64,000 bases of DNA. It comes from Minisyncoccota bacterium (lineage in GTDB: Bacteria; Patescibacteriota; Minisyncoccia; Minisyncoccales; Minisyncoccaceae). The stretch is from positions 308,414-372,413 of the forward strand of contig JBAZIU010000001.1 of NCBI GenBank assembly GCA_041651685.1. Direction: 5' to 3'. Each line of letters opens with the position of its first letter. Within the stretch, counting starts at the first letter, position 1. The position numbers and the translations under genes are program-made. The notes beneath the pieces were generated by a model, which made no database searches, was not told the origin of the DNA, and saw nothing but the letters and a program-made list of their open reading frames with translations. Below, one piece after another: positions 2,396 to 60,406 of the stretch.

Positions 2396-3043
2396 CTACT
2401 TCTTCCTTATCTTCAACCGTATCGGCGGAATGGTATCCTGGTCGAAAATGAGGCGATTTTCCATCAATTCCCTGTATTCGGGATTGTTTGACAGGTCTTT
2501 AATCGGGCTCAATCTTTTGATTAAGACCGGAATTAAGGAAATCAGCATCAATAACCCGGCCATTTCATATCCCTTAAAAGAGAAGGAGAATATGATTCCG
2601 GTCAGGAACGACAAAAGGGTCCCGATTGAAGCAGTCCAGATTATAGTAAATAATAGGCAAGGAATCAAGGAGATGATTAAAACCGTGGGAGAAATAACCA
2701 AGAGTGCTCCGATCAAAGCGGCTAATCCCCTGCCTCCTTTTAATCCCAAAAAGATGGACCAGTTGTGCCCGGCCACGGCCAAGACTCCGCAAAACACTTG
2801 GAACAATTCGGAAAAACCGAAATATCTGGCCAGATAGACGGCAAGAAACCCTTTGCCGACATCAAAGATGAAAGTGAAGATGCCTTGCCACAAACCGACA
2901 TTTTTGAAAACATTGGAACCAGAATTCTTTTTCCAGCCTATTTCCATCAGATTCTTTTTGGTCGTGTATTTGGTAATCAAATATCCGAAAGGAATGGAGC
3001 CTAAAAGATAGGCAAGGATTAAAAGAAGAATGGCTTTAATCAT
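2396..3043 (-). CDS. plsY: Glycerol-3-phosphate acyltransferase PlsY (acyl-phosphate dependent)
   Basis: 215 aa polytopic protein; LLGSIPFGYL, SGSNVFKNVG, AGHNWSIFLGLKGGRGLAA match the PlsY signature blocks. Confidence 0.85.
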   Translation of the reverse strand: MIKAILLLILAYLLGSIPFGYLITKYTTKKNLMEIGWKKNSGSNVFKNVGLWQGIFTFIFDVGKGFLAVYLARYFGFSELFQVFCGVLAVAGHNWSIFLGLKGGRGLAALIGALLVISPTVLIISLIPCLLFTIIWTASIGTLLSFLTGIIFSFSFKGYEMAGLLMLISLIPVLIKRLSPIKDLSNNPEYRELMENRLIFDQDTIPPIRLKIRKK

Positions 3044-3710
3044 TTAAGTATTTCTTATTTTTTATCTTTTCAATTTGATCTAAAACTCTATCCTTGTGAG
3101 CATAGATTATCAGAATAGTTGCAAAAACAGTCGGAAAGAAAAGAGATGGAGCAAAATAATAAATCCATAAAACCGCTACAGCTTCTCCGATCAGTCTTCC
3201 AATTATTTGGTCAGAAACAGCAGCTTTGAATAGTTTGCCAGAAAACTTTCTTCCCATCAAAGCTTCAACGATGATCATAAAGAAAAGAACGATTCCTAAC
3301 CAGCCTAAGAATACTTGCCAGTTTAAGTATAATAATATTCCTAAGAATGTTGCAGCTCCCCTTCCCCCCTTAAATTTAAGAAAGATAGAATAGTTATGTC
3401 CTAAGATTACAAAGAATGTGGCAAGAGTTGTTAGTAGAACGGCGTTTCCAGGAATTAAATTGTTTGCCAAAATTACAGCTAATACACCTTTAGAAGCATC
3501 AAGAAGAAAAACGATAAGAAAGGAAATTATACCCCAGGCTTTTCCTTTTTCATGAGAAACAATTCTTAAAGTATTGAGAGCTCCGGTGTTTTTAGAACCG
3601 AAAGTTCTCATATCTTTATTCAAGAATAATTTAACATATAAAAGAGCAAAAGGAATAGAACCTAAAAGATATGAGATTACAGAAACTAGAATGTGGTTAA
3701 TGTTTAACAT
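3036..3710 (-). CDS. plsY: PlsY paralog (second G3P acyltransferase)
   Basis: 224 aa; LLGSIPFALL, SKNTGALNTLR, LGHNYSIFLKFKGGRGAAT; overlaps the downstream plsY by 8 nt. Confidence 0.8.
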   Translation of the reverse strand: MLNINHILVSVISYLLGSIPFALLYVKLFLNKDMRTFGSKNTGALNTLRIVSHEKGKAWGIISFLIVFLLDASKGVLAVILANNLIPGNAVLLTTLATFFVILGHNYSIFLKFKGGRGAATFLGILLYLNWQVFLGWLGIVLFFMIIVEALMGRKFSGKLFKAAVSDQIIGRLIGEAVAVLWIYYFAPSLFFPTVFATILIIYAHKDRVLDQIEKIKNKKYLND

Positions 3711-3723
3711 AGTTTATTTATTA

Positions 3724-4302
3724 TTATGGACAACATATGCCGTATGTCGTAATAGGCCAAGTTCCCCAAGTAAGCGCTGATCCGACATATTCATGACAAT
3801 ACCACCCCTGTGCGCCTGAAGTTATAACAGAAAGAGGTACTGATGCAGCCATATAGACATTATTGGCTTGACTAGGAACTCCATAACAACCTCCCCCAAC
3901 AATATATGTTGAAGTTGGGCATATAGCTGATGCTGTGCAATGAGTGCCTCCAGCACAACTCGAACTAGCAGTTACTTGAGTACAATTAGCAGCAGAAAAA
4001 GTTCCAGCTTTAGTTGTTTGCACTGTTCCGTCGGGAAACAAGAATCCTCCAGAGGTGGATTGCACCGTTCCTGCAACGCTTAATTTTTGCTGGGGAGAAT
4101 CTGTTCCTATTCCCACCTTATTATCCGAGGTCACGCAAAGTCCCGTAGTGCATTCCATTTCAGACCAAGAGTGTCCATTAGCCGGCTTTATTGTGGAATA
4201 GGCATCGACTATTTCTGACTTTAAAACATTAACATATTGGAATGATGTTGCCAGTATGGTTAATACCAGTATTGAGCAAATGATTGTTAGGTTTTTGTTC
4301 AT
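3724..4302 (-). CDS. Membrane-anchored Cys-rich fibre-like surface protein (shares its N-terminal module with the S74 proteins)
   Basis: N-terminal TM, then NGHSWSEMECTTGLCVTSDNKVGIGTDSPQQKLSVAGTV, paralleling NPGHLWSSMECNSDTLCVDT.NNRLGIGTASP in 20162 and 58076; then FLFPDGTVQTT (tail-fibre-like) and a 10-Cys C-terminal domain. Confidence 0.6.
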   Translation of the reverse strand: MNKNLTIICSILVLTILATSFQYVNVLKSEIVDAYSTIKPANGHSWSEMECTTGLCVTSDNKVGIGTDSPQQKLSVAGTVQSTSGGFLFPDGTVQTTKAGTFSAANCTQVTASSSCAGGTHCTASAICPTSTYIVGGGCYGVPSQANNVYMAASVPLSVITSGAQGWYCHEYVGSALTWGTWPITTYGICCP

Positions 4303-4321
4303 ATGCTTTTATTATAATACA

Positions 4322-5200
4322 TTATGCCTCAGTTGAGCAACAGATAAGGGTTCCCGGACCGACATGGCAGCCGATGGCCATACTGGTGATACTGATAAAC
4401 TCTATTTTGATTTGCGGATACTTTTCTTCAATCAATCCTCTTAATCTCTGGGCCTGTTCCAGATTATCGGCATGCGATATGCCGACTCGGCATCTCTTTC
4501 CTTCGCTCAAGGGCTTCTTGACAACCTCCTCCATTTGCTTAAATAAAGCGTTGGCGGTATCTTGAGCCTGCATTTTAAGATTGGCCGGCTTTACCACGCC
4601 GTCCTTTACCGAAAGAATCGGCCTCATTCCTATTTTTTGCATTTGAGATAAGATTACGGATAAGGCATGATTGATTCTTCCTCCGGCTTCAAGCCATTTG
4701 GGGCTTTCAATCATTCCGAAAAGGAAAGTTTTGGGAAGAAGTGCTTCCACTTCTTTTTTTATTTCTTCCAATGATTTTCCTTCTTCGCTCATTTCGGCAG
4801 CCTTGAGAGCCAAAAGACTTTCACTGGCGTCGGCATTAAAGGAATCGATAACGAGGATTCTTTTTTGTTTTTCCTCGTCAAACATTTTTTGAGCTTGTAT
4901 TGCCGAATTGTATGTTCCCGAGATGGCCGAACTGATGGTTATGCAAATTACGTTTTCAGAATTATTCAGAGCTTCTTCGAAGGCTTTCTTGAACACTCCC
5001 ACTGAAGGTTGAGATGTTTTAGGAGTTGTTTTTATCATTATTCTCTCTGCCTCCCTCATTTTTTCAAAAACATTATTGCCGGAAAGTTTTTCTCCTTCCG
5101 GCCAATCGATTACAAACGGAACAACTACCATTCCGTACTTATCAATCAGTTCTCTTGTGATTGGAGCACTTTCCCCGATGACGATTGTTGATTTTTTCAT
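4322..5200 (-). CDS. DegV family fatty-acid-binding protein (FakB-like)
   Basis: 292 aa; TSQPSVGVFKKAFEE...ICITISSAISGTYNSAIQA is the DegV core motif. Confidence 0.85.
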   Translation of the reverse strand: MKKSTIVIGESAPITRELIDKYGMVVVPFVIDWPEGEKLSGNNVFEKMREAERIMIKTTPKTSQPSVGVFKKAFEEALNNSENVICITISSAISGTYNSAIQAQKMFDEEKQKRILVIDSFNADASESLLALKAAEMSEEGKSLEEIKKEVEALLPKTFLFGMIESPKWLEAGGRINHALSVILSQMQKIGMRPILSVKDGVVKPANLKMQAQDTANALFKQMEEVVKKPLSEGKRCRVGISHADNLEQAQRLRGLIEEKYPQIKIEFISITSMAIGCHVGPGTLICCSTEA

Positions 5201-5210
5201 ATGTTTTTTA

Positions 5211-6092
5211 TTACTCTTCTAATGTTGCACACATTAACGTTCCCGGACCGACATGGGCGCCGATAAACGGCCCGGTCATGCTTATAAAGTCGACTTTGAT
5301 TTTATCTCCGAACCTGTTTAATAAAAGAGACTTCAGTTCGTTCGCTTTTTCTATGTTGTCGGCGTGGGAAATGGCAACCCGGTATTTTTTTCCTTCCTGC
5401 ATAGCTTTTTTGGTAACTTCTTCGAAGTGTTTCAAAAGGGCTTCGGCAATATCCTTGGCATTTATGCTTAAGTTGGCCGGCTTCACTTTCCCGTCTTTCA
5501 TATGCAGTATCGGACGTAATCCGATTTTCTGCATTTGGGCCAAGATAACGGCCAGAGTGTGGCTGATTCTTCCCCCGGCTTCCATCTGATTGGGGTTTTC
5601 GGTCATTCCGAAAAAGTATGTTTTATTAACATAGTTATTAATCGTTTCGACTATTTTTTGTATGTCCTCTCCCCTTTCAGATAGCTCGCAGGCCTTAATC
5701 GCCAAAAGACTTTCCGCCGCATCAATATTGTTTGAATCAATGATGTGAATCCTTTTCTGCATTTCTTCGCTGAACATTTTTCTGGTTTGAATTGCCGCAT
5801 TATATGTTCCCGATATTTTTGAACTGATGGTAATCACAATTGTGTTTTCGCTTTTCGACAGCGCTTCATCGTATGCTTTTTTAAAAGCTCCCATCGGCGG
5901 TTGAGAAGTTTTAGGAGTTGAATTGACTCCTTTCTCAACGGCTTTTCTCATTTTTTGAAAGATATTGTCCCCTTTTAATCCTTCTCCTTCCGGCCAATTA
6001 AGGCTGGGAGTCAAAGCAATTATCCCGTACTTATCAAGAATATCTTTAGTTGTTGAAGCGAAGCTGCAAACGATTACGGTTGCTTTTTGCAT
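5211..6092 (-). CDS. DegV family fatty-acid-binding protein (FakB-like)
   Basis: TSQPPMGAFKKAYDE...ITISSKISGTYNAAIQ. Start trimmed from 6158 to ATG 6092 (MQKATVIV) because the longer ORF overlaps the upstream gene by 60 nt. Confidence 0.8.
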   Translation of the reverse strand: MQKATVIVCSFASTTKDILDKYGIIALTPSLNWPEGEGLKGDNIFQKMRKAVEKGVNSTPKTSQPPMGAFKKAYDEALSKSENTIVITISSKISGTYNAAIQTRKMFSEEMQKRIHIIDSNNIDAAESLLAIKACELSERGEDIQKIVETINNYVNKTYFFGMTENPNQMEAGGRISHTLAVILAQMQKIGLRPILHMKDGKVKPANLSINAKDIAEALLKHFEEVTKKAMQEGKKYRVAISHADNIEKANELKSLLLNRFGDKIKVDFISMTGPFIGAHVGPGTLMCATLEE

Positions 6093-6097
6093 ATATT

Positions 6098-6976
6098 TTA
6101 TTGATTCCAAGAAAGAATTAATGTATCGGGTCCGATATGTCCTCCGACCGGAAAGCAAACCAGATTGATAAAAGAGATCTCGGTGTTTTTTAAGCTCAAG
6201 ACCATTTCTTTAAGTTTGTCCGCCTGTCCGATGCTATCGGCATGGGTAATGGCAACACTTACTTTTTTACCGGCATCTCTAATCTTTTTAGTCATCTTTT
6301 CAAATTCTTCAAAGAGAGCAGTGGGAAGATCCTTAACCCCTCTTTTAATGCCGATAATGGTTAGTTTGCCGTCTTTTATTCCGAAGAGCGGTTTTATATT
6401 CATTTTTTCTGCCTGATTAATTACGGTTGGCATGAATCGCGGGACTCTCCCGCTGGCTTCAACCCATTTCGGACTTTTGTACATTGCAATCAGTTTGAAA
6501 TTAGGCAACTCTTTTTTTAATCTTTCGATTACTTCTTTGATACCAAGCTTTTCTTTGATTAGGGATATTGCCTTTAAGCAAATGAGTCCTTCCGATCCGC
6601 TTCCGTGAGTTGAATCAAAAACATGGACTTTGTTTTGCAGTTCTTGAGCCAGGAATTTTTTGGCCTGCATCGCCGAATTGTATGTTCCGGAGATTTTTGA
6701 AGAAAAAGTGATGCACAAAACCTCTTCAAATTCTTTGAGTTTCTCTTTAAAAGCGGAAAGGAAATCGTTGATTGAAGGCTGGGAGGTTTTGATCAAGCTT
6801 TTCATTCCTCTTCTTTCCCCTTCCCTTACCTTTTCATAGATGTTGCCGGGAATGTTGGCCAATTCCTGAAAATCAAGCTTGAATCTGACAATTCCGACCT
6901 TATTGCTTTCTATTATTTCTTGAGGCAAGTCACAGACTTCGTCGAACACCAATCCTATTTTGTTTTGGTTTTCCAT
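6098..6976 (-). CDS. DegV family fatty-acid-binding protein (FakB-like)
   Basis: TSQPSINDFLSAFKE...CITFSSKISGTYNSAMQA; third tandem paralog. Confidence 0.85.
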   Translation of the reverse strand: MENQNKIGLVFDEVCDLPQEIIESNKVGIVRFKLDFQELANIPGNIYEKVREGERRGMKSLIKTSQPSINDFLSAFKEKLKEFEEVLCITFSSKISGTYNSAMQAKKFLAQELQNKVHVFDSTHGSGSEGLICLKAISLIKEKLGIKEVIERLKKELPNFKLIAMYKSPKWVEASGRVPRFMPTVINQAEKMNIKPLFGIKDGKLTIIGIKRGVKDLPTALFEEFEKMTKKIRDAGKKVSVAITHADSIGQADKLKEMVLSLKNTEISFINLVCFPVGGHIGPDTLILSWNQ

Positions 6977-7007
6977 ATTTTAAAAAGTTATGACTTCTTT
7001 TTTTGAA

Positions 7008-8792
7008 CTATTTGACTATCCAGCCCACCAACAAGCTTTGCGGACAGGCATTGATGCTGGTGACCGGGTCGGTAACATTGATAAAGGAGATGTCGGTCTT
7101 CCTTATCGTCTTCAGTTTTTGCTTTAATCCCTCGGCCATTTCCAGATGGTCTCCGTGACAGATAACCACTCTGATTCTCTTCCCTTCTCGGATGTCTCTT
7201 CGCGACTCTCTTTCTATTTTATTAAACAGGGCCGTGGCGAAATCATTGGTTTTAAAGCTTTCGGTGGCAACTATTTTTCCATGCCTCATTTCGCCCAAAG
7301 CATATCGAACCTCTTCCTTTTTTCTAAACCAGAAAGGAGTATTTTTTTCCTTGTTCCACCAGTCTGATTTTTCGGCGATACAATACAGGTTAGTTTTAAG
7401 AACGGTCATTTCCATTCTTTTCAATATTTCTCTGACCTTTCTTTGTTCGGTTATCATTTCCAGGGCTTCAAGGACTACGATTGATTGGCCGGCACTGACG
7501 TTTTTCGAATCAATGATAAAGACGTGTTCCCTCTCGACATAGTTGAGCATTTCCCTCCCTTTAACAGCCGCTTCGTAGTTTTGGGAAAGCTTGGAAGAAG
7601 AAACGATGCAAAGAATGTCTTCGAATTTTTCCAATTGTTTTTTGAAAGATTCCATGAAAAATTCGGGATGAATCGGCTCTATTTTCGGCTGGGAAACCAC
7701 GCCTTGTTTTTTGGCTTCTTTAATTCTCTGGCAAATATTTTCTCCGACGATATTTTCACCTTCCGGCCAGCTGATTCTCAAAGGAATCACTTCTATTCCG
7801 TAGTGGGAAATTATCTTGGCCGACAGCCCGGCTCTTTCATCGACAACGATTCCGATAGAAACATTCTCAACCGATTTTTCTCCGGTAACTTCTTTGGCCA
7901 TATCCTCGATTCTTAAGCTTTCAATCGTTCCCATTTTTTTGACAATGTCTCTCACCTCATACGGGTCGTCGGTATGGATATGGATTTTAGTCCTATCCCC
8001 CACTTGGATGACATCAAGGCAGTTGCCCAGGTAGTGCAATTTTTCTTTGATTTGTTTTTCCGAATAATCTCCGTCTTCAAGCAAGGCCACTACTTCATAT
8101 CTGTTGGAAAGAATCTGAACGAATCTTCTCGGCCTGTTCATTTCTTCCTTTTCGTATGACTTAATGGTGAACGGCTCGGACTGTTCTTTCAGTGTATCCA
8201 GATATGTTTCCAATATCATTAAAAAGCCCAATCCTCCGGCATCGACTACCCCCGCTTTTTTCAGCACTTCCATTTTGTTGGGGGTATCCAATAACGCAGC
8301 ATTGGCTTTTTCTAAGGCGTGATAGAAGATTTTGACAATGTCTTTTTCTTCGTCCGATTTTTCTTGTATTCCCAAGGCGAAAGCTTGAATGACATCGAGC
8401 ATGGTTCCCTCTTTGGGGTTTTGGATAGAATCTTTGGCTCTTTCATATCCTTTGTTAAAAGCTTCGCCCAGCTTCTTTGCGTCAACCGTCGATTCTTTGC
8501 TGATAACGGGAAGGAAGCCGGCCAAAAATCCCGTATAGATTATGCCGGTATTGCCTTGGGCGAAAGTCAGAGCTCCGTCCAAAGCATCGTTGCCCAGTTC
8601 TTCAATTGAAGAATATTCTTTGTTTTCAACCGCGTCTTTAATTCCCTTAAGTGTTGCGGCCAAGTTGTTTCCCGTGTCCTGGTCAGGTACCGGAAAAACA
8701 TTGATTTTGTTTACCTGCTCTTTATCTCTCTCGATTCTTTCGTAGGAGAAAAGCAGCATTTTCTGTAATTCTTTTTGCGATAGTTGGTCCAT
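7008..8792 (-). CDS. Dak2 (DhaL-like) domain fused to a DegV-like C-terminal domain; FakA/YloV-like fatty acid kinase candidate
   Basis: 594 aa; N-terminal FPVPDQDTGNNLAATLKGI (Dak2 phosphate-binding motif); C-terminal ~270 aa resembles the neighbouring DegV genes (VSQPKIEPIHPEFFMESF...CIVSSSKLSQNYEAA). Confidence 0.7.
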   Translation of the reverse strand: MDQLSQKELQKMLLFSYERIERDKEQVNKINVFPVPDQDTGNNLAATLKGIKDAVENKEYSSIEELGNDALDGALTFAQGNTGIIYTGFLAGFLPVISKESTVDAKKLGEAFNKGYERAKDSIQNPKEGTMLDVIQAFALGIQEKSDEEKDIVKIFYHALEKANAALLDTPNKMEVLKKAGVVDAGGLGFLMILETYLDTLKEQSEPFTIKSYEKEEMNRPRRFVQILSNRYEVVALLEDGDYSEKQIKEKLHYLGNCLDVIQVGDRTKIHIHTDDPYEVRDIVKKMGTIESLRIEDMAKEVTGEKSVENVSIGIVVDERAGLSAKIISHYGIEVIPLRISWPEGENIVGENICQRIKEAKKQGVVSQPKIEPIHPEFFMESFKKQLEKFEDILCIVSSSKLSQNYEAAVKGREMLNYVEREHVFIIDSKNVSAGQSIVVLEALEMITEQRKVREILKRMEMTVLKTNLYCIAEKSDWWNKEKNTPFWFRKKEEVRYALGEMRHGKIVATESFKTNDFATALFNKIERESRRDIREGKRIRVVICHGDHLEMAEGLKQKLKTIRKTDISFINVTDPVTSINACPQSLLVGWIVK

Positions 8793-9518: not shown

Positions 9519-10082
9519 TTACCACTTGGCTTTGTGCAACCCTAAGTTATACCCAACTCTATTGCATAAAATATGTATCAAAAATGTCAAGACAAAGAGA
9601 GTTATCCAGAATTCCAAAGAAAGGCGAACTAACGGCTGGATAAAGATAAATGCTCCGATGACGTAATTGGTTTGGTCAAAAGGGATGAAAGCAACTCCGG
9701 GCCTTAATCGCAATCTTCTTTTAAGAAAGGCGAAACCGATATCCCCTGCTATTATTCCGATTGATAACAGTAACCCCAAGGCCCAGCCGTTTATGCTATT
9801 AATGTCCAGCTCGATGGTTTGGTAGAACGAAAGATTATAATAGTTATGAATAAAGATGAATAACGGAGTCAAAAAAGTGCAAAGGATGATTTCACAAATC
9901 ACCCCCCTCCAAGTTTTGTGGCTGCCGAAAACAGGCATTCCGTTTATTGTCCTTCCCCCGTCAATAGGCTTATTCAAACCATTCAAAATATTAAAAGTGT
10001 TGGCTAAAGGAGGAGAAGCGTTGGCTAACAGCGCTGGCATGAAGAAATATATAACCGATAGTATATATAGGTAGTTAATCAC
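9519..10082 (-). CDS. CarS/DUF46-like CTP-dependent CDP-alcohol (CDP-archaeol synthase family) membrane enzyme
   Basis: 187 aa, GTG start; NKPIDGGRTINGMPVFGSHKTWRG, GDIGFAFLKRRLRLRPG, PFDQTNY and the C-terminal YNLGLHKAKW follow the CarS block order as I recall it. Confidence 0.6.
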   Translation of the reverse strand: MINYLYILSVIYFFMPALLANASPPLANTFNILNGLNKPIDGGRTINGMPVFGSHKTWRGVICEIILCTFLTPLFIFIHNYYNLSFYQTIELDINSINGWALGLLLSIGIIAGDIGFAFLKRRLRLRPGVAFIPFDQTNYVIGAFIFIQPLVRLSLEFWITLFVLTFLIHILCNRVGYNLGLHKAKW

Positions 10083-10436
10083 AAAATTTATTGAATGATA
10101 TATTCATTAATTAAATTATATAATAAAAGCCGAATATGTTCAACCGTTTTTATGATTTCCACCCCCTTGGTTTTTAGGATGTCTTTAATATATTATAAGA
10201 ATATAAATAGGTCCGAGTGTCAAGTGGTGGTGTGAATACGATCAGCATCAATTGACCAGATGATATATAGATATAGTTGTTTCGAAAAATTCGGCCAAGG
10301 CGGCATTCTCGAAACACCACTTCCCTATCCATACCCCTTAGTCTTTTGCAATCAAAAGGAATAAGATTAAGAAGTAATCTAATAATAAAGATTGCTAACA
10401 AGATATGTTAGTTCTATGTATCTAGACTAATAATAG

Positions 10437-10507
10437 TCGGGATGCCGGGATTTGAACCCGGATTACAGACTCCCGAAGCCTGCATAATGCCATTATATGA
10501 CATCCCG
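10437..10507 (-). tRNA. tRNA-Pro (anticodon CGG), compact 71 nt
   Basis: Acceptor CGGGATG/CATCCCG, anticodon stem CAGGC/GTCTG with loop TTCGGGA, 4-nt variable loop, T arm CCGGG-TTCAAAT-CCCGG, AT-only D stem. Confidence 0.8.
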
Positions 10508-10512
10508 ATATG

Positions 10513-10528
10513 TGTTTCACGTGAAACA
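10513..10528. promoter_or_regulatory. parS-consensus palindrome TGTTTCACGTGAAACA (site 1)
   Basis: Perfect 16-bp palindrome identical to the ParB/Spo0J parS consensus; begins 5 nt from the tRNA-Pro 5' end. Confidence 0.75.
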
Positions 10529-10539
10529 TTTACTAAACG

Positions 10540-10555
10540 TGTTTCACGCGAAACA
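10540..10555. promoter_or_regulatory. parS-like palindrome, one central mismatch (TGTTTCACGCGAAACA, site 2)
   Basis: 15/16 match to site 1. Confidence 0.6.
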
Positions 10556-10570
10556 TTTTAGAGGTTTTGA

Positions 10571-10664
10571 TTCTGGACACGATTCTGGACATTCTGGACA
10601 CGATTCTGGACAAACTGTGGATATTCTGGACAAATTGGGGACAATCTGGACACGATTCTGGACA
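10571..10664 (+). repeat. Iteron-like array: 6 perfect TTCTGGACA direct repeats plus 2 variants and one TGTGGATAT box
   Basis: Perfect copies start at 10571, 10583, 10592, 10604, 10624, 10656; variants TTGGGGACA (10635) and ATCTGGACA (10644); TGTGGATAT at 10616-10624 (8/9 to the DnaA box TGTGGATAA). Spacing 9-20 nt, all in the same orientation. Confidence 0.8.
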
Positions 10665-10668
10665 CGTG

Positions 10669-10739
10669 TGGACCTGATAAGAATCGGACTTATATTACTA
10701 CCGTGTGAAGGTAGCGTTCTACCATTGAACTACAGGTCC
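10669..10739 (-). tRNA. tRNA-Val (anticodon CAC), compact 71 nt
   Basis: Acceptor GGACCTG/CAGGTCC, D arm GTTC-AATGGTA-GAAC, anticodon stem CTACC/GGTAG with loop TTCACAC, 4-nt variable loop, AT-rich T arm ATAAG-TCCGATT-CTTAT. Confidence 0.8.
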
Positions 10740-10744
10740 GGGAA

Positions 10745-10760
10745 TGTTTCACGTGAAACA
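10745..10760. promoter_or_regulatory. parS-consensus palindrome (site 3)
   Basis: Perfect TGTTTCACGTGAAACA; begins 5 nt from the tRNA-Val 5' end; a half-site (ATATTTCAC) follows near 10767. Confidence 0.75.
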
Positions 10761-10850
10761 TTTAAGATATTTCACAGCGCATACTCTTCCCTACCTTGCT
10801 TCAGACTATGCGATTATATCTCTTTTTAAAATAATAATCAATCGTATGTG

Positions 10851-10921
10851 TGGACCCGATGAGAATTGAACTCATATCTCTGCAATGCGAATGCAGTATT
10901 CTACCGTTGGACTACGGGCCC
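10851..10921 (-). tRNA. tRNA-Ala (anticodon CGC), compact 71 nt
   Basis: Acceptor GGGCCCG/CGGGTCC with the G3:U70 alanine identity pair, anticodon stem CTGCA/TGCAG with loop TTCGCAT, T arm ATGAG-TTCAATT-CTCAT. Confidence 0.8.
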
Positions 10922-10926
10922 GAAGA

Positions 10927-10942
10927 TGTTTCACGTGAAACA
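10927..10942. promoter_or_regulatory. parS-consensus palindrome (site 4)
   Basis: Perfect TGTTTCACGTGAAACA; begins 5 nt from the tRNA-Ala 5' end. Confidence 0.75.
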
Positions 10943-10961
10943 TCTGGTAGGACATCCAAAA

Positions 10962-10977
10962 TGTTTCACGTGAAACA
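10962..10977. promoter_or_regulatory. parS-consensus palindrome (site 5)
   Basis: Perfect TGTTTCACGTGAAACA. Confidence 0.75.
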
Positions 10978-10988
10978 TTTGGAAGGAG

Positions 10989-11004
10989 TGTTTCACGTGA
11001 AACA
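10989..11004. promoter_or_regulatory. parS-consensus palindrome (site 6)
   Basis: Perfect TGTTTCACGTGAAACA, ending 1 nt before the cca stop codon (11006-11008). Confidence 0.75.
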
Positions 11005-11005: not shown

Positions 11006-12499
11006 TTAGCTGACCCAGTACTTTTCTTTAGTCATTTGATCTTCCTTAATAATAACATTATTTCTCTCTTTCTTGGCTTTTTCAGCTAAATCTTCTAATT
11101 CCGCTTCACTCAGGCCACCCAATTCTAATAGTTTCTTCTTTAAATAGGTTTTAGTGTTGTTTTTAGGGTCCCTTAAGACATCTTCAAATAATACATCTAA
11201 TATCATGCCTACCTTGCGAGAAGGTTTAATATCCAATGTTTTCATTACCTCTTCGCCATTGATTTTAAGCATTTTGACGGAAATAGGGTCTTTAGACACC
11301 TTTTCAATCATATATTTGAAGTGCCTTAGTTTGTATGGTTCGGCTTTGGGGCACCCAGAGCCGATCCTGTCAGCCATCCTTAATTCCAGCAAATCTTCCA
11401 TGTTTTCGGCTCCGACGTTTCTGACCAGTCTTCGAACCGAAGCTTCTCCAACTTCGTCAACATTGTAGTAGAAGAGGTGATATCTGACTAAATTGACTAT
11501 CTTGTCCACATCTTTTTTGGGAAATCTCAATCGATTGAGTATTTTTTCGGCCATTTGAGCCCCAACCACCTCATGGTTATAGAAAGTGGCATCATTGCCT
11601 TCGCCTCTTTTAGTCTTCGGTTTTCCTATATCATGGAGCAGGGCAGCCATGCGAACTTCGAATTTATAAGCTTTATGACTTGCGAAATTGAGGCATTCTA
11701 AATTATGCTTGTAGCAATCATAGATATGATGCTTATTTTGGCCGACCTCATACCCTTCTTCCAATTCCGGTATTATATAGGCTAATAGCCCTTTATTTCG
11801 CAATGATTCTATTCCGGCAGCCGCATTTTCGCTATTAATGATCTTAATCAATTCATCCCGGATTCTTTCTTGGGATATTTTTTTCAATAATGGGGCATTA
11901 TCCTTAATAGCTTGCTTGGTTTTCTCTTCAATTATCCAATCATTACCCAGAGTAGTCTTTAATCTGACCGCCCTCATCATTCGCAGAGCATCTTCTTTAA
12001 ATCTTTCGTTCGGATCGCCCACAGCCCTGAGGATATGGTTCTCAAGGTCGTTTTTTCCATCAAATAAATCGATAATCTGCATCTCCGAGCCGTTTTTTAA
12101 GGATATTGCTATCGAATTGACGGTAAAATCACGCCTTTTCAAGTCTTCTTCGATGGTTTTTGACCAGGAAACCTTGTCCGGATGGCGACTATCAGAGTAA
12201 GTTGCTTCGTTTCTATAGGTAGTTATCTCAATCACGTCGAACTCGTCTTTCTTGATAGGAAAAGCGACTCCGACCGTTCCGAAGTCATTTTCATAGAAAG
12301 TTTTGATTTTCATCTTTTCAAAAATCTTTTGGGTTTCTTCGGGCAGGGCATTGGTGGCCACATCCCAGTCGGCCGGGATGGCGTCCCTCAAGAAATCTCT
12401 GGTGCATCCTCCGACAATATATGCCTCAAATCCGCTTTTTTGCAAAGCGTCTATACAGAATAAGACATTCTTGGGAATTGATTTCAAATCAATTTTCAT
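11006..12499 (-). CDS. cca: CCA-adding tRNA nucleotidyltransferase with HD domain
   Basis: 497 aa; AYIVGGCTRDFLRDAIPADWDVAT (PolyA_pol head), RMMRAVRL, LLHDIGKP (HD). Consistent with most tRNAs here lacking an encoded CCA. Confidence 0.9.
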   Translation of the reverse strand: MKIDLKSIPKNVLFCIDALQKSGFEAYIVGGCTRDFLRDAIPADWDVATNALPEETQKIFEKMKIKTFYENDFGTVGVAFPIKKDEFDVIEITTYRNEATYSDSRHPDKVSWSKTIEEDLKRRDFTVNSIAISLKNGSEMQIIDLFDGKNDLENHILRAVGDPNERFKEDALRMMRAVRLKTTLGNDWIIEEKTKQAIKDNAPLLKKISQERIRDELIKIINSENAAAGIESLRNKGLLAYIIPELEEGYEVGQNKHHIYDCYKHNLECLNFASHKAYKFEVRMAALLHDIGKPKTKRGEGNDATFYNHEVVGAQMAEKILNRLRFPKKDVDKIVNLVRYHLFYYNVDEVGEASVRRLVRNVGAENMEDLLELRMADRIGSGCPKAEPYKLRHFKYMIEKVSKDPISVKMLKINGEEVMKTLDIKPSRKVGMILDVLFEDVLRDPKNNTKTYLKKKLLELGGLSEAELEDLAEKAKKERNNVIIKEDQMTKEKYWVS

Positions 12500-12527
12500 G
12501 TTTCTATAATATAATATATTTCCTGAC

Positions 12528-12555
12528 TTGACAACTGGTTTTCTTTTGCTAAAAT
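12528..12555 (+). promoter_or_regulatory. Sigma70-type promoter candidate for nusA (TTGACA-16-TGcTAAAAT)
   Basis: TTGACA at 12528-12533, extended -10 TGCTAAAAT ending at 12555. Confidence 0.5.
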
Positions 12556-12583
12556 GGAATTAAGAATAAGCAGTTTTTTGATT

Positions 12584-12606
12584 GGTCGGATTGGTCCGAC
12601 CTTTTT
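12584..12606 (+). terminator. Intrinsic-terminator-like hairpin in the nusA leader
   Basis: GGTCGGA-ttgg-TCCGACC followed by TTTTT, located between the promoter candidate and the nusA ATG (12644). Confidence 0.5.
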
Positions 12607-12643
12607 AATAACAATTAAAGATAAATAATAAATAAAAAATAAT

Positions 12644-34447: not shown

Positions 34448-34522
34448 GCGCGTGTAGCTCAGTTGGTTAGAGCGACCGACTTATAATCGGTAGGTTCGAT
34501 GGTTCGAGTCCATCCACGCGCA
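34448..34522 (+). tRNA. tRNA-Ile (anticodon TAT)
   Basis: Acceptor GCGCGTG/CACGCGC, anticodon stem ACCGA/TCGGT with loop CTTATAA, T arm GATGG-TTCGAGT-CCATC. My fold needs a 6-nt variable region (one extra nt). Confidence 0.75.
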
Positions 34523-34561
34523 CAATAGACAAATCAATCGTTTTCTGGTAGTTTATTTTTG

Positions 34562-38652: not shown

Positions 38653-39174
38653 ATGAACGAAGGGTTCTTAAATCCCCAACAGATTCTTAAGAATATTCCG
38701 TTGAAGGAAGACATGATTGCCTGTGATTTCGGTTCGGGCTCGGGAGGATGGGCGATTCCCTTGGCCCACGAACTCAAGGCCGGAATGGTCTATGCCATCG
38801 ATGTTTTGGAAAGTGCAGTTTCCGCTTTAGATGGAAAGATTTCCGCCCAGCAGTTATTTAACATTAAAACGATATCGGGTGACATAGAAAAGGGAGTGAA
38901 GATAAAAGACGGGTATTTTGATTTAATATTAATGACCAACCTCTTGTTTCAAGTTGAGAACAGAGATTTTGTCATGCAGGAAGCGAAGAGAGTTTTAAAG
39001 CCGAACGGAATGGTTTTGATTATCGACTGGAAGAAAGATGCTCCGGTCGGTTCTAAAGAGGGAAGACTGTCCATTGAAGAGGCTGTTTTGTTGGGAGAGA
39101 AAAACGGATTCAAAAAAGAGAAAGAAATTGGTTCGGGTAATTTTCATTGGGGTTTATTATTAAGAAAAATATGA
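38653..39174 (+). CDS. Class I SAM-dependent methyltransferase
   Basis: 173 aa; ACDFGSGSGGWAIPLA motif I; ends in TGA overlapping the next ATG (ATGA). Confidence 0.75.
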   Translation: MNEGFLNPQQILKNIPLKEDMIACDFGSGSGGWAIPLAHELKAGMVYAIDVLESAVSALDGKISAQQLFNIKTISGDIEKGVKIKDGYFDLILMTNLLFQVENRDFVMQEAKRVLKPNGMVLIIDWKKDAPVGSKEGRLSIEEAVLLGEKNGFKKEKEIGSGNFHWGLLLRKI

Positions 39175-40004
39175 AAAAAATATTTATTCTATGTGCGTTA
39201 TCTATAATTTTTTCGGTCGTTTTGCCATTATCAGCAATGGCAGAATCATGTCCTGGTGGTAAATGGGAAGATAACATAACGTCAGATGGTCGTAATTTAG
39301 GAAAATGCGTTTGTTATGTTGCGAGTGAAACATACCCTAATTGTAGTGGTAGTTGTACTAATGGCAGAGTCCTTTCTGCAGGAGAATGTGTTTGTCCTCA
39401 AGCTAACCAATATTGGAATGGAAGTTCTTGTGTTGTTACAACCCATACTGATGCTACAACTAGGAATAATTGCAGTGCTATTGTTTGCGAAGCTCTTTCT
39501 TATTGTAGCGGAAGCAACTGTCAGGGCAGTACAGATAGAGAACAAGGATATTATAGCGATTCTTTAGGCAAGTGCGTTTGTCCTACAGGATACTATAGTA
39601 ACGAAGCTCCGACTGTAGGTGGATCTAGTAGTGGCTCCGGTGTTACTTCTGGTTCAACAGGGAGTGGCTCATCAACTATATCCAGTACTTATACCCCAGG
39701 AAATGTTGGGGGAGGTTCACTTAGCTTACCAACAGTGACCAGCACGGGAGTTTTAACCAATCCCATTACTTCGGGAAGCTTTGCCGATTTACTTAACAGG
39801 ATAATTGATTGGATTTTGAATATCGCTTTGGTCTTGGCTCCATTGGTTATTGTCTACGGAGGGTTCATTTATATGACTGCGGCAGGGGATACCGGTAAGG
39901 TTACCCAAGGAAAGAATATCGTCCTTTATGCCGTCATCGGATTCATTGTGGCGCTTCTGGCCAAGTCCCTTATTGGCATTTTTACAGATTTAGTGGTAAA
40001 ATAG
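39171..40004 (+). CDS. Secreted Cys-rich protein with a C-terminal TrbC/VirB2-like (T4SS-pilin-like) hairpin
   Basis: Start trimmed to ATG 39171 (MKKIFILCALSIIFSVVLPLSAMA). ~20 Cys in C-x-C / C-x3-C patterns, Ser/Gly linker, then LAPLVIVYGGFIYMTAAGDTGKVTQGKNIVLYAVIGFIVALLAKSLI. Confidence 0.65.
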   Translation: MKKIFILCALSIIFSVVLPLSAMAESCPGGKWEDNITSDGRNLGKCVCYVASETYPNCSGSCTNGRVLSAGECVCPQANQYWNGSSCVVTTHTDATTRNNCSAIVCEALSYCSGSNCQGSTDREQGYYSDSLGKCVCPTGYYSNEAPTVGGSSSGSGVTSGSTGSGSSTISSTYTPGNVGGGSLSLPTVTSTGVLTNPITSGSFADLLNRIIDWILNIALVLAPLVIVYGGFIYMTAAGDTGKVTQGKNIVLYAVIGFIVALLAKSLIGIFTDLVVK

Positions 40005-40027
40005 TTTTAAATTAAAATAACAAAAAT

Positions 40028-40360
40028 ATGAAAAAGCAAACACTAATTCTTATCTGTCTCTGGGTAGCCGTGTTGTTTGTCCCGTTTATGTCTTTGGCTG
40101 ATGTTGTTGATTACGATGAAGATAACGCCATTGCGCAGACGATAACCAACATTACCAAGTGGGTTACTAATATATGTCTGGGCATAGCCATTCTGATGTA
40201 TGTTATCGGAGGATATTTCTGGGTGATTGATAATGGTAACTTGGAAAGCGTTAAGATGGCCAAGAATATCATTCTGTCGGCAACAATCGGATTGGCCATC
40301 ATCTTAATCGCCAACAGCCTAGTCAGCGTAGTAAAGACATTAGTTGTAACAAATGATTAA
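40028..40360 (+). CDS. TrbC/VirB2-like (T4SS-pilin-like) protein
   Basis: 110 aa; signal peptide, then ILMYVIGGYFWVIDNGNLESVKMAKNIILSATIGLAIILIANSLV. Confidence 0.6.
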   Translation: MKKQTLILICLWVAVLFVPFMSLADVVDYDEDNAIAQTITNITKWVTNICLGIAILMYVIGGYFWVIDNGNLESVKMAKNIILSATIGLAIILIANSLVSVVKTLVVTND

Positions 40361-40394
40361 TAACCATATAAAGGTCGGATAATAATTAACAAAC

Positions 40395-40832
40395 ATGACT
40401 ATGAAGAAAAAAATATTAGCCTTGATTGCCTGCGCAATAGTATTATCGTTTATCGGAACAGGCTATGTTGCCGCTGCAGAAGACAATTTGGATGGTTGCA
40501 GAATTACAAGAACAAGCAGATTGCCCACCACATTGGACTGTGAGACAACGTCAAGCAATGGAACGCTTTACTGTTATTATGATGACGGAGATTGCGGAAT
40601 GTGCTGCTTATTGAACGGAATCTACAACATTACCGATTGGGTATTCGTTGTTTTGATGGCTATTTCATCACTAATGATTATTTGGGGTGCTGTATTATTC
40701 ACCACTTCTTCGGGAGACCCGAAAAAGACAGGCAACGCAAGACAGCTCATCATCTATGCCGCAGTTGGTATTGCCGTAGCTCTATTTTCAAGAGCGGTTC
40801 CTCCGGCAGTCAAGATGATCATCGGAGCTTAA
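40395..40832 (+). CDS. TrbC/VirB2-like (T4SS-pilin-like) protein with a Cys-rich ectodomain
   Basis: 145 aa; signal peptide, 7 Cys, then LMIIWGAVLFTTSSGDPKKTGNARQLIIYAAVGIAVALFSRAV. Confidence 0.65.
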   Translation: MTMKKKILALIACAIVLSFIGTGYVAAAEDNLDGCRITRTSRLPTTLDCETTSSNGTLYCYYDDGDCGMCCLLNGIYNITDWVFVVLMAISSLMIIWGAVLFTTSSGDPKKTGNARQLIIYAAVGIAVALFSRAVPPAVKMIIGA

Positions 40833-48171: not shown

Positions 48172-49863
48172 ATGGATAAATCAGAAATCATATTTTTCGG
48201 ACAAACGACCTTTAGGGGAGAAATGAAAAGGTTCGGAATCAAAACAGACGACAGAAGGCGTCATATTTATGTCGTCGGTAAAACCGGTATGGGTAAAACC
48301 GAGCTTTTGAAGAATATGGTTATTCAGGATATCAGGAATGGCAACGGAGTCGGCTTTGTCGACCCGCACGGAGAAGCTTCCGAAGAAATATTAAGGTTCG
48401 TTCCCAAGGAAAGAATCAAAGACGTGGTCTATATCAATCCGGCCGATATTGAAAATCCGATTGCTTTTAATATCATGGAAGATGTTGACGCCGAATACAG
48501 GCATCTTATCGCCGGTGGACTGATGGGTGTTTTTAAGAAGATTTGGCCCGACGTCTGGTCTTCTCGAATGGAATACATTCTAAACAATGCCATTTTGGCT
48601 TTGCTCGATATTCCCGGTTCGACTTTATTGGGAGTCAATAGATTATTGTCCGATCCCGAATGGAGAGCGGAAGTGGTTGAAAAAGTTAAAGACCCGGTGG
48701 TCAAATCTTTTTGGTTAAAAGAATTCAGCCGATACAGCCAGAGATACGAAGTCGAAGCCACCGCCGCCATTCAGAATAAAATCGGACAGTTTATTTCTTC
48801 TCCTCTGGTCAGGAATATTATCGGACAGGAAAAGTCAACGATAGATATCAGGAAGATTATGGATGAAAAAAAGATTCTGATTATGAATCTTAGTAAAGGA
48901 AGAATAGGGGAGGACTCTTCGAGGTTGTTGGGAGCACTATTGGTTACCAAGCTGCAATTGGCCGCCATGTCGAGAGTTGATACGGCCGAAAAAGAAAGAA
49001 ATGATTTTATCTTGTATATTGATGAGTTCCAAAATTTTTCAACTGATTCTTTCGCCAATATTTTATCCGAAGCCAGAAAATACAGACTGTCTTTGGTCTT
49101 GGCCCATCAGTATATAAAGCAAATGGAGGAGAAGGTTATGGACGCGGTGTTCGGCAACGTGGGAACGATGATTGTTTTTAGGGTGGGAGCCGAAGACGGA
49201 GAGTTTTTGGAAAAAGAGTTTTCTCCCGAATTCTATACCCATGATTTGGTTAATCTTCCCAAACAGAATATCTATGTTAAATTGATGATTGACGGTTTGA
49301 CTTCCCGACCTTTTTCTGCGGAAACTCTTCCTCCGGCAATACCGACCGAAGATGACCACGAGAAAGAGATTATTGAATTCTCAAGGAAGACATACGGAAC
49401 CTTAAGGCCGATTGTTGAAGAAAAGATATCCAAATACGCAGGAGTTGAAGATCTTCCCAAGATGGAGGCAAGGGAAAACAGGCCGCAAAAAGATTTGTAT
49501 GATGCCGAGTGCGGCAAATGTGGAAAGAAGGTCAAAGTTCCTTTTAAGCCGGACGGAAAAAGGCCGGTCTATTGCAAGAGTTGTTTAGGCAAGAATGGGG
49601 GAGAGCAGTCCAAGAGTGCTTTTGAAAAGCTTCCTTTCATTTCTTTAGAAGAAACGGCCAAGGAGTTTACCCCGGTTCAGAAAGAAAGGAAGAAAGAAAA
49701 TATTGTTAAACCGGAAATAATTGATTCAAATAAATCCAAAAAGAAAATTGACTTTGAAGGATTGAGGAGTGTGATAAAAGAAGCAAAAAAGGAGAAAGAA
49801 GAAAAGGAGGAAGCTCCGAAAGATAAAGGAACCATCAATCCTGGAGAAGTGATTAAGTTTTAA
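48172..49863 (+). CDS. VirD4/TraD/FtsK-HerA-like P-loop ATPase with a C-terminal CxxC-x17-CxxC zinc ribbon and Lys/Glu-rich tail
   Basis: 563 aa; Walker A VVGKTGMGKTE, Walker B FILYIDEFQNF, LVLAHQY; CGKCGKKVKVPFKPDGKRPVYCKSC; no TM segment. Confidence 0.7.
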   Translation: MDKSEIIFFGQTTFRGEMKRFGIKTDDRRRHIYVVGKTGMGKTELLKNMVIQDIRNGNGVGFVDPHGEASEEILRFVPKERIKDVVYINPADIENPIAFNIMEDVDAEYRHLIAGGLMGVFKKIWPDVWSSRMEYILNNAILALLDIPGSTLLGVNRLLSDPEWRAEVVEKVKDPVVKSFWLKEFSRYSQRYEVEATAAIQNKIGQFISSPLVRNIIGQEKSTIDIRKIMDEKKILIMNLSKGRIGEDSSRLLGALLVTKLQLAAMSRVDTAEKERNDFILYIDEFQNFSTDSFANILSEARKYRLSLVLAHQYIKQMEEKVMDAVFGNVGTMIVFRVGAEDGEFLEKEFSPEFYTHDLVNLPKQNIYVKLMIDGLTSRPFSAETLPPAIPTEDDHEKEIIEFSRKTYGTLRPIVEEKISKYAGVEDLPKMEARENRPQKDLYDAECGKCGKKVKVPFKPDGKRPVYCKSCLGKNGGEQSKSAFEKLPFISLEETAKEFTPVQKERKKENIVKPEIIDSNKSKKKIDFEGLRSVIKEAKKEKEEKEEAPKDKGTINPGEVIKF

Positions 49864-51598: not shown

Positions 51599-51883
51599 AT
51601 GGCTTCTGCAAACAACGAACAAATTCAAGTTCGCATTGATTCTGAAACTAAAAATGAAGCAAAGAAGATTTTAGATAGTTTGGGCATGGATATGAGCTCG
51701 GCAATTAAAATTTTTTTTCGTCAGATAATAAATGCTAAAAATTTTCCTTGCGAATTAAGAGGGGAGAACGGATTTACCTTGCGAAATGCCGAAATTTTAC
51801 GTGAATCAATCGCGAGTGCAAAAAGTAGCAGCAAATTTTTTAAAAAGGGACACGATCTTATTAAAGATGCTCTAGAAGATTAA
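51599..51883 (+). CDS. RelB/DinJ-family antitoxin
   Basis: 94 aa; IQVRIDSETKNEAKKILDSLGMDMSSAIKIFFRQI (ribbon-helix-helix). Confidence 0.8.
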   Translation: MASANNEQIQVRIDSETKNEAKKILDSLGMDMSSAIKIFFRQIINAKNFPCELRGENGFTLRNAEILRESIASAKSSSKFFKKGHDLIKDALED

Positions 51884-51886
51884 ATT

Positions 51887-52159
51887 ATGTTTATTTTAAA
51901 ATATTCTAGCCGATTTAAGAAAGATTTAAAGAATTATAAACATAATAAGAGTGTCCTTATCGAATTGGAGAAAGTTTTAGATGTTTTAATTAAGGACAGT
52001 GAACTGCCGATTAAAAATGTTAATCATCGCTTGTCCGGAGAGTTTAGGGATTGTTTTGAATGTCACATAAGACCGGACATTCTTCTTGTTTATAAGATAG
52101 AAAAAACAGAAATAACCATTTTGTTATTAAGAATCGGCTCTCACTCGGATATTTTTTAA
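51887..52159 (+). CDS. YafQ/RelE-family mRNA interferase toxin
   Basis: 90 aa; HRLSGEFRDCFECHIRPDILLVYKIE...ILLLRIGSHSDIF. Confidence 0.8.
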   Translation: MFILKYSSRFKKDLKNYKHNKSVLIELEKVLDVLIKDSELPIKNVNHRLSGEFRDCFECHIRPDILLVYKIEKTEITILLLRIGSHSDIF

Positions 52160-56011: not shown

Positions 56012-56275
56012 TTATGAGTATAATTTACTATGGCTTCCTATAGCAATGAAATAAATAATTTTTCCATTATTTATTTCTTCGAAAACAGCCCTCCAGTCGC
56101 CAGTTATATTTATGCTTCTGAAATTTTTTAATTTTCCGGAAAGCTGGTGGTTATTCAAAATAGGAGAGTGTGCATCATTGGTAAGTATTTCAAGGCGAGA
56201 CCTAAAAGAATTTTTAATATTTGGAGGGCATTTTTTAAATTCTTTTATGAATTTTTGAGAATATTCAATCAGCAT
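56012..56275 (-). CDS. RelE/ParE-superfamily toxin
   Basis: 87 aa; HQLSGKLKNFRSINITGDWRAVFEE...IYFIAIGSHSKLY. Confidence 0.75.
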   Translation of the reverse strand: MLIEYSQKFIKEFKKCPPNIKNSFRSRLEILTNDAHSPILNNHQLSGKLKNFRSINITGDWRAVFEEINNGKIIYFIAIGSHSKLYS

Positions 56276-56277
56276 GC

Positions 56278-56553
56278 TTATTTACCTTTAAGAAAATCAA
56301 TGGCTTCTTTGTTATTCTTAAAAGCATAATATGCTTTGCTTTTTCTTTCCTTCCTGGATTCGTTTATTGAGTCCAATAGGTACTTGCTGGGGGACCCTTC
56401 ATCCATAGTCAATAGAAATGTTTTATCTCTGACGAGCTGTTTTAGGAATCCATTAATAGCTCCGCTTAATGTCAGCCCCAAATCAGAGGCTACCTTTTGG
56501 GCCTCTTTTTTAACCCTTGAATCGGTCTTGATGTTTATAACAGCTGTTTCCAT
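56278..56553 (-). CDS. RelB/DinJ-family antitoxin
   Basis: 91 aa; INIKTDSRVKKEAQKVASDLGLTLSGAINGFLKQLV; 2-nt gap to the toxin. Confidence 0.75.
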   Translation of the reverse strand: METAVINIKTDSRVKKEAQKVASDLGLTLSGAINGFLKQLVRDKTFLLTMDEGSPSKYLLDSINESRKERKSKAYYAFKNNKEAIDFLKGK

Positions 56554-60332: not shown

Positions 60333-60368
60333 TGCTTTTTAAAAGGTGTTATTATATCAGTATAGCAT

Positions 60369-60396: not shown

Positions 60397-60406
60397 ATTT
60401 TTAATT

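Follow-up and report, generated by a model that had tools for sequence, protein, structure and literature searches.

A compact parS array threaded between tRNA genes and bracketing phased iterons is a candidate centromere and origin element in a Minisyncoccota bacterium

The window analysed here is a stretch of 64,000 nucleotides from a Minisyncoccota bacterium (assembly GCA_041651685.1, contig JBAZIU010000001.1). Within it, six copies of parS, the palindrome bound by the partition protein ParB, are packed into 492 bp immediately after cca, the gene for the CCA-adding enzyme. The sites are interleaved with three tRNA genes and lie on both sides of an array of ten short direct repeats (iterons). 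ParB binding is by far the most likely function of the palindromes, a conclusion we hold with high confidence because of their exact parS identity, their restriction to one locus, and the conservation of the 16-mer against diverging flanks. Moreover, a phased and conserved array resembling DnaA boxes and a conserved strand switch combine with the parS sites, which makes it slightly better than an even prospect that the centromere is built into or beside a replication origin. Our overall reading, which we consider probable, is that the cluster is a genuine parS centromere of the host chromosome, and that the iterons constitute the initiator-binding part of the origin or are located immediately beside it.

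The palindrome TGTTTCACGTGAAACA agrees with the ParB/Spo0J parS consensus TGTTNCACGTGAAACA at 16 of 16 positions, so an earlier note on this DNA was right to call the match letter for letter. A 16-mer scan of the window recovered each of the copies given in that note, five perfect and one with a central T>C change. The half-site it placed near position 10767 is present at about 10766, but only as a weak remnant. As the note had also proposed, all sites are intergenic and threaded between tRNA genes, and all six are confined to the non-coding DNA between the CCA-enzyme stop codon (11006-11008) and tRNA-Pro. The features of the locus are as follows.

10436..10507, minus strand: tRNA-Pro(CGG)
10513..10528: parS 1, perfect, 5 nt upstream of the tRNA-Pro(CGG) 5ˊ end
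10540..10555: parS 2, one central mismatch, T>C (TGTTTCACGCGAAACA)
10569..10674, plus strand: iteron array, ten 9-mers in a single orientation
10668..10739, minus strand: tRNA-Val(CAC), 3ˊ end GGTCCACA
10745..10760: parS 3, perfect, 5 nt upstream of tRNA-Val(CAC)
10766..10774: degenerate half-parS remnant (ATTTCACAG), 6 of 7 bases of GTTTCAC
10850..10921, minus strand: tRNA-Ala(CGC)
10927..10942: parS 4, perfect, 5 nt upstream of tRNA-Ala(CGC)
10962..10977: parS 5, perfect
10989..11004: parS 6, perfect, starting 1 nt past the stop codon of the CCA-adding enzyme gene
11006..12499, minus strand: CCA-adding enzyme gene (cca), with PolyA_pol head, RNA-binding and HD domains
12500..12643: AT-rich divergent promoter region between cca (minus) and nusA (plus)

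When up to three mismatches are allowed, the window contains eight matches to the 16-mer compared to 0.31 expected, and none of 100 shuffled sequences reaches eight. The only matches outside the cluster, at 3546 and 39317, carry three mismatches each and are at chance level. No other copy with two or fewer mismatches occurs in the 64 kb, in agreement with the earlier note, and none with up to three occurs in an additional 10 kb on either side (L203, L209). Thus, parS is found at one locus in the 84 kb examined and is not scattered at similar density. With no further copies in the window and the 20 kb of flanking sequence, a dispersed palindrome of the repetitive extragenic palindromic (REP) type was rejected.

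Three tRNA genes, each detected by ARAGORN and Rfam and each lacking an encoded CCA, are part of the cluster. The distance from parS to the mature 5ˊ end is exactly 5 nt for tRNA-Ala, tRNA-Val, and tRNA-Pro alike, and none of the other 22 tRNA genes in the window has a parS site beside it. This constant gap, the iteron array of TTCTGGACA units between the sites, and a strand switch 1.5 kb away are additions to what the earlier note had described.

Conservation was assessed in 80 metagenomic loci around CCA-enzyme homologues (59-92% identity) and in four further loci found by exact look-up. The note had asked whether related genomes keep the array at the syntenic position, and it is indeed retained directly after the cca stop codon in approximately 15 relatives whose CCA enzymes are 63-92% identical to that of the window. 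Identities and site counts are listed below.

L123: CCA-enzyme identity 92%, 6 parS
L218: 89%, 4 parS
L124: 88%, 5 parS
L134: 79%, 5 parS
L125: 77%, 4 parS
L126: 76%, 3 parS
L127: 76%, 5 parS
L216: 76%, 4 parS
L128: 73%, 3 parS
L130 and L132: 67-69%, 2 parS each
L133, L135, and L155: 63-64%, 4-5 parS about 200 bp apart in an AT-rich spacer of 1.3-1.6 kb

The 16-mer is invariant across these relatives, and copy number and spacers vary. The junction between the cca stop codon and parS is the same as in the window in all close relatives, and the 21-kb loci of the closest relatives contain no parS elsewhere. Among individual sites, parS 1 is kept in L123, L124, L125, L127, L134, L216, and L218, the counterpart of parS 2 is perfect in L123 and L134 and absent in L125, and the half-parS remnant is not conserved in L124 or L134. 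More distant relatives, at 59-62% CCA-enzyme identity, mostly lack parS at the cca locus, and three of them (L162, L180, L202) have a degenerate palindrome 1-2 nt before tRNA-Pro.

The spacing to the tRNA genes is also recurrent. A gap of 3-6 nt between parS and the tRNA 5ˊ end, with variable sequence, is present in nine relatives (L123, L124, L125, L127, L130, L132, L134, L216, L218), and in L130 and L132 the palindrome nearly fills the 22-nt spacer between tRNA-Pro and tRNA-Val. However, adjacency to a tRNA gene is unnecessary for the maintenance of the sites, because those in L133, L135, and L155 are located in the AT-rich spacer hundreds of nucleotides from any tRNA gene, and L128 keeps three parS sites although all three tRNA genes are missing. 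The fixed gap is best explained by the packing of sites into the only spacers available in a very compact cca-tRNA operon. The palindromes may have a secondary role as a leader hairpin or transcription roadblock.

Some relatives carry variable insertions, certain of them with an open reading frame (ORF), between tRNA-Ala and the next parS (L125, 6390-6820; L126, 11620-12090; L127, 2950-3260). Five contigs (L163, L168, L172, L184, L185) end about 2 kb or less downstream of cca, and in L189 the locus is at one end of a long contig. Such contig ends may reflect assembly breaks at a repeat-rich or strain-variable region.

The iteron array is located between tRNA-Val and the parS pair that precedes tRNA-Pro, with parS on both sides. 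Its ten boxes comprise six copies of TTCTGGACA and one each of ATCTGGACA, CTGTGGATA, TTGGGGACA, and GTGTGGACC, the last of which is the 3ˊ end of tRNA-Val. They start at 10571, 10583, 10592, 10604, 10615, 10624, 10635, 10644, 10656, and 10666, and the resulting spacings of 12, 9, 12, 11, 9, 11, 9, 12, and 10 nt have a mean of 10.6 bp, equal to one helical turn. Only one exact copy of TTCTGGACA is found in the window outside the array. A resemblance to the core shared by the iterons and the DnaA box is also seen in GGTCCACA, the 3ˊ end of both tRNA-Val and tRNA-Ala, and that of tRNA-Val keeps the register of the array, with the next box 10 nt away.

Strong constraint acts on the array: its identity between the window and relatives is 0.89, compared to 0.55 for spacers and 0.40-0.65 for the four-fold degenerate sites of the adjacent cca gene; the tRNA genes stand at 0.96-0.99. 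In other words, the boxes stay conserved while synonymous sites of the neighbouring gene are near saturation. The order of the boxes, including two odd ones, is the same in L123, L124, L134, L125, L216, and L218, and the sole differences are deletions of whole units. The arrangement of parS, iterons, and parS survives the loss of tRNA-Val in L126 and L127 and of all three tRNA genes in L128.

In the tRNA-sense orientation, the boxes have the sequences TTGTCCAGA, GTGTCCAGA, ATATCCACA, and TTGTCCCCA. They agree with the DnaA box TTATCCACA at 6-8 of its 9 positions or differ by one change from the actinobacterial box TTGTCCACA, and a single one of the ten is within one mismatch of TTATCCACA. A canonical DnaA-box cluster was considered for the window and rejected, since the 25 matches to TTATCCACA with at most one mismatch (16 expected) are dispersed and form no cluster. 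Arrays in or near the equivalent place in more distant relatives are built from other units: 17-21 copies of TCTGGCCA interleaved with TGTGGATAA/TGTGGACAA in L133, L135, and L155, five repeats of a 22-nt unit in L129, 15 copies of [TC]G[TC]GGACAA in L194, nine copies of TTGTCCCA in L171, and 11 copies of TGTC[GA]CGA in L148. Perfect TTATCCACA or TTGTCCACA boxes are present in the equivalently placed arrays of L135 and L194. It is plausible from these resemblances that DnaA or another initiator would bind the array.

The polarity of the surrounding DNA fits an origin. To the left of 12.5 kb, every gene of the window is on the minus strand, and between 12.6 and 41 kb nearly every gene is on the plus strand. 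The GC skew changes from about −0.07 left of 12 kb to about +0.14 on the right, and its cumulative curve has a minimum near 12.5 kb. Both strand and skew therefore switch in the cca-nusA region (12500..12643), 1.5 kb from the array, and cca, the gene that anchors the locus, is the one closest to the switch on its side. The pattern recurs in 14 of 16 relatives with loci of about 21 kb: relative to cca, all long ORFs upstream are on the opposite strand and all those downstream share its strand, and the skew signs match. This divergent minus-to-plus pattern is that of an origin and not of a terminus. A GC-skew minimum that coincides with a switch of leading-strand genes, as is used to recognise oriC, is thus present on the scale of 21-84 kb only. 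An origin within the cca-nusA intergenic region itself was rejected because nothing but two divergent promoters is found in this spacer, and it is free of repeats. Near the switch, non-coding DNA rich in repeats occurs solely in the region of parS sites and iterons.

Several observations weigh against an origin at this place. GC skew and gene strand are correlated and do not constitute independent evidence. No conserved AT-rich unwinding element or DnaA-trio was recognised beside the boxes: the A-rich stretch between the last box and the next parS is only 15-25 nt long, and neither of the AT-rich tracts (10050-10200 and 10810-10845) is kept in L124, L134, or L125. The dominant box TTGTCCAGA departs from the DnaA consensus at the normally critical C8, where it has G. 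In addition, the iteron sequence turns over fast between lineages (TCTGGCCA, TGTCGCGA, TTGTCCCA, GCGGACAA), which is unusual for DnaA boxes.

The expected genes are also missing from the neighbourhood. Pfam scans of about 60 ORFs, motif searches, and local hidden Markov models (HMMs) built from 52 ParB and 59 ParA ORFs revealed no ParB, ParA, or DnaA in the window, in keeping with the earlier note, or in a further 10 kb beyond each end. When motifs and HMMs were run against approximately 1.1 Mb of related sequence, none of the three genes was found less than 10 kb from the array at any of some 85 related loci. No DnaA signature that would place dnaA/dnaN beside the candidate origin was seen in the window, its flanks, or the loci of relatives. 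The evidence on origin proximity, for which the note had recommended a skew analysis, is divided: the minus-to-plus switch is 1.5 kb away and is shared by 14 of 16 relatives, but neither dnaA nor parAB is found in the 84 kb.

Wider searches for ParB had a similar outcome. ParB was not located at the looked-up loci of relatives on contigs of 198 kb and 656 kb, and searches of the literature and supplementary tables did not locate a ParB for this lineage. A related Paceibacterales bin has DnaA, DnaN, and Smc but no canonical ParB among the genes listed (about 780, an estimated count). In Minisyncoccus archaeiphilus, none of the marker genes of the window is among the listed first genes counted from dnaA, which we estimate to be a few hundred. 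These absences, too, count against the proposed centromere and origin.

The earlier note had called the density of sites exceptional, and this was assessed by scanning one genome per bacterial species for two perfect parS sites 5-35 nt apart and examining 8-kb loci around them. Pairs no more than 35 nt apart are common, with at least 120 loci that include Streptomyces, Collinsella, Lachnospiraceae, and Bradyrhizobium. The maximum number of parS sites per 500 bp among the 120 loci listed is distributed as follows.

2 parS: 86 loci
3 parS: 27 loci
4 parS: 4 loci
5 parS: 1 locus (L094)
6 parS: 1 locus (L103)
8 parS: 1 locus (L083)

Six sites in 0.5 kb thus rank high in this distribution without being unique. 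The density is not exceptional, because arrays of 4-8 parS upstream of parAB exist in Lachnospiraceae, Eubacteriales, and other groups; they make up 7 of the 120 loci listed, and every one is located directly upstream of parA-parB. ParA is encoded in 64 and ParB in 51 of these 120 loci, which come from other phyla, and in none of them is a tRNA gene within 300 nt of parS. What is unusual is the setting, namely the interleaving with tRNA genes at a distance from any par gene.

The dense arrays upstream of parA-parB (L083, L103, L094, L016, L060, L105, L110) are one of the two nearest parallels found, with 4-8 perfect or near-perfect parS sites in 500 bp. Their hosts are Lachnospiraceae (L083), Eubacteriales (L103), Clostridia (L094), and Acidimicrobiia, along with a contig labelled Nitrosopumilus, and the sites recur with a period of 34-47 bp. 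However, these arrays are regular, occupy the parAB promoter region, and have no tRNA gene within 300 nt and no iterons, whereas the array described here is irregular and far from par genes.

The window as a whole is cellular DNA, with genes for NusA, trigger factor, ClpP, RNase Y, IF-2, FtsH, GyrA, SecDF, TsaD, and RecG, together with FakA/DegV, PlsY, type IV pilus proteins, and pilins of a type IV secretion system (T4SS). The CCA-enzyme homologues are labelled Minisyncoccales or Candidatus Paceibacterota, so that the host is an ultra-small bacterium of the Paceibacteria type within the Patescibacteria. There are 25 tRNA genes in these 64 kb, compared to 44 in the 1.54 Mb of its cultured relative M. 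archaeiphilus. The three from the parS cluster (Ala-CGC, Val-CAC, Pro-CGG) are without exception C34 isoacceptors, have no encoded CCA, and are placed after the CCA-enzyme gene. Elsewhere, a tRNA-Ile with the anticodon TAT (UAU) at 34448-34523 represents an uncommon way to read AUA. A near-consensus promoter (TTGATT-17-TATAAT) at 10813-10841 on the minus strand, between tRNA-Ala and the parS that precedes tRNA-Val, is present in L123 and not in L124 or L134.

Further gene content includes two toxin-antitoxin pairs of the RelB/YafQ (ParE-like) type at 51599-52159 and 56012-56553, and a lipid-scavenging block at 2396-8792, where two PlsY paralogues, three DegV genes standing alone, and one fusion of FakA and DegV follow each other in tandem. 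The regions 1867-2256, 39147-40832, 48172-49863, and 60332-63011 together encode several paralogous T4SS pilins, a coupling protein similar to VirD4/TrwB that has a zinc finger, and the first part of a type IV pilus operon (PilM, PilO-like), which continues in L209. An ORF at 10497-10829 on the plus strand was judged spurious because it crosses tRNA genes and iterons and is without family support. A non-tRNA RNA family was rejected, as Rfam at gathering and E-value thresholds yields only the three tRNAs. CRISPR or TIGR-type guide arrays were likewise rejected, because the units are 9-12 nt long, nearly identical, and without spacers.

The best-surviving alternative is that the parS centromere is real, but the iterons are a platform for another protein and the true oriC is elsewhere, for example beside dnaA. 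Candidate ligands would be a winged-helix regulator of the OmpR/PhoB type, a second partition adaptor, or, in the case of a DnaA-titrating cluster similar to datA, DnaA itself. Regulators of the OmpR/PhoB type bind TGTCA-like direct repeats about 11 bp apart, each 21-22-nt double unit of the array has two direct half-sites, and OmpR-family two-component genes exist in the order. The fast turnover of the iterons, the absence of a nearby dnaA, and the lack of a recognised unwinding element also favour this explanation. However, the arrays are always about 2 kb or less from the same divergent switch of strand and skew, even when they are on the other side of cca (L148, L171). Furthermore, the arrays of L135 and L194 include perfect DnaA boxes, interleaved in register, and no DNA-binding gene travels with the array. 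On balance, we regard this alternative as rather unlikely.

A second possibility is that the palindromes act as RNA hairpins in the cca-tRNA transcript, where they would guide or insulate processing by RNase P or at 3ˊ ends, or protect the 3ˊ end of the cca mRNA, with the resemblance to parS incidental. Such a role would fit their position, 3-6 nt ahead of the mature tRNA 5ˊ ends both in the window and in nine relatives, and also the nearly filled spacer in L130 and L132. Yet a single hairpin is weak (−3.9 kcal/mol, z = −1.9), and the exact 16-mer is kept, with neither compensatory changes nor covariation seen. The absence of the palindrome from the other 22 tRNA genes of the window also argues against processing signals, as do the remote sites of L133, L135, and L155, the retention of three sites without tRNA genes in L128, and the lack of neighbouring tRNA genes in all 120 parS-pair loci listed. 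We consider this explanation very improbable. A role as terminators was rejected, since the sites have no T-run and a terminator scan found none there.

The least probable explanation, which we give almost no weight, is that the sites are generic REP-like repeats or operators of a transcription factor other than ParB on the cca-tRNA operon: they are intergenic and near transcription units, and intergenic parS sites in Pseudomonas are able to repress neighbouring promoters (PMC7022226), but more than 50 letter-for-letter copies of a pan-bacterial parS across more than 12 genomes are not expected of an unrelated factor, and the sites are not scattered through the 84 kb or the 21-kb loci of the closest relatives.

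The preferred reading of a centromere at an origin can be compared with several known systems. The array is similar to the chromosomal ParABS centromeres of Bacillus subtilis, Caulobacter, Pseudomonas (parS1-4), Corynebacterium, and Streptomyces in having several copies of the same 16-bp palindrome at what may be an origin-type location, and in studied bacteria the par operons and most parS sites are in the ori domain (PMC7022226). By analogy with these chromosomal systems, it would be expected to share the loading of ParB-CTP and SMC (PMC7022226). It differs in its compactness, with six sites in 492 bp where the known ones are spread over 5-65 kb, and in being entirely intergenic, interleaved with tRNA genes, and bracketing phased iterons. 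Also unlike the studied systems, there is no parAB for at least 20 kb to one side of it and 63 kb to the other.

The other near parallel comes from four Streptomyces loci (L013, L035, L069, L120), which have two perfect parS sites 18 nt after the stop codon of a cca/pcnA-like gene, presumably a gene of the origin-proximal region. As in the window, parS directly follows the stop codon of a CCA-enzyme homologue. Unlike the array here, with its gap of 1 nt, the Streptomyces pair is 18 nt away, is without tRNA genes or iterons, and is one of many parS on a large linear chromosome. The linkage of cca and parS may be old, and its presence in Streptomyces could reflect either ancient synteny or convergence.

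A centromere among iterons has precedent in the origin of Vibrio cholerae chromosome 2, where parS2-B is inside ori2 and ParB2 influences the binding of RctB to iterons, and plasmid iteron origins are similar. By analogy, a partition protein and an initiator may meet within a few hundred base pairs at the locus described here. However, ori2 belongs to a secondary, plasmid-derived replicon with ParB2 and RctB adjacent, whereas this would be a main chromosome with the universal parS and no adjacent initiator gene. The iterons also resemble the DnaA-box arrays of oriC, such as the low-affinity boxes of E. coli with their period of about 11 bp and the actinobacterial TTGTCCACA boxes, in having 9-mers in the same orientation, helical phasing, and a switch of skew and strand. 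They differ in the G for C at position 8 of the dominant box, the lack of a recognisable unwinding element, the absence of an adjacent dnaA, and the variation of the box between lineages.

Together, these features make up a conserved composite element directly after cca, consisting of two or three parS, tRNA-Ala, parS, tRNA-Val, ten helically phased iterons, one or two parS, and tRNA-Pro. As in established ParB biology, CTP-bound ParB dimers would load at each parS, slide outwards, and form a single partition complex, which would additionally load SMC. The iteron array would be the initiator-binding part of the replication origin, or would lie immediately beside it, so that the built-in centromere could capture freshly replicated origins at once. 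More tentatively, Patescibacteria of the Minisyncoccales type might have origins that are composites of about 0.3-0.6 kb uncoupled from dnaA and parAB, with helically phased variant initiator boxes bracketed by parS and threaded through the cca-tRNA operon. Centromere, initiator platform, and strongly transcribed tRNA genes would thereby share a few hundred base pairs. ParB might then directly gate or mark initiation, and the cca-parS junction might be ancient and shared with Actinobacteria. We offer this extension as a speculation that is rather doubtful as a whole.

In the literature searched, nothing describing replication origins or chromosome segregation in Patescibacteria was found. The locus is a short, conserved, and testable candidate for both together. 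In the sequence identity, rarity, and synteny of its parS sites, it agrees with a chromosomal ParABS centromere. If the iterons are the origin, it would be an origin apart from dnaA and parAB with a centromere inside, an arrangement for which secondary replicons are otherwise the main examples. Should the array not be an origin, it would still be a clean example of a conserved and very compact parS cluster far from its par genes. Because the iterons change between lineages and parS is fixed, the relatives constitute a natural series of variants for the co-evolution of initiator and centromere sites.

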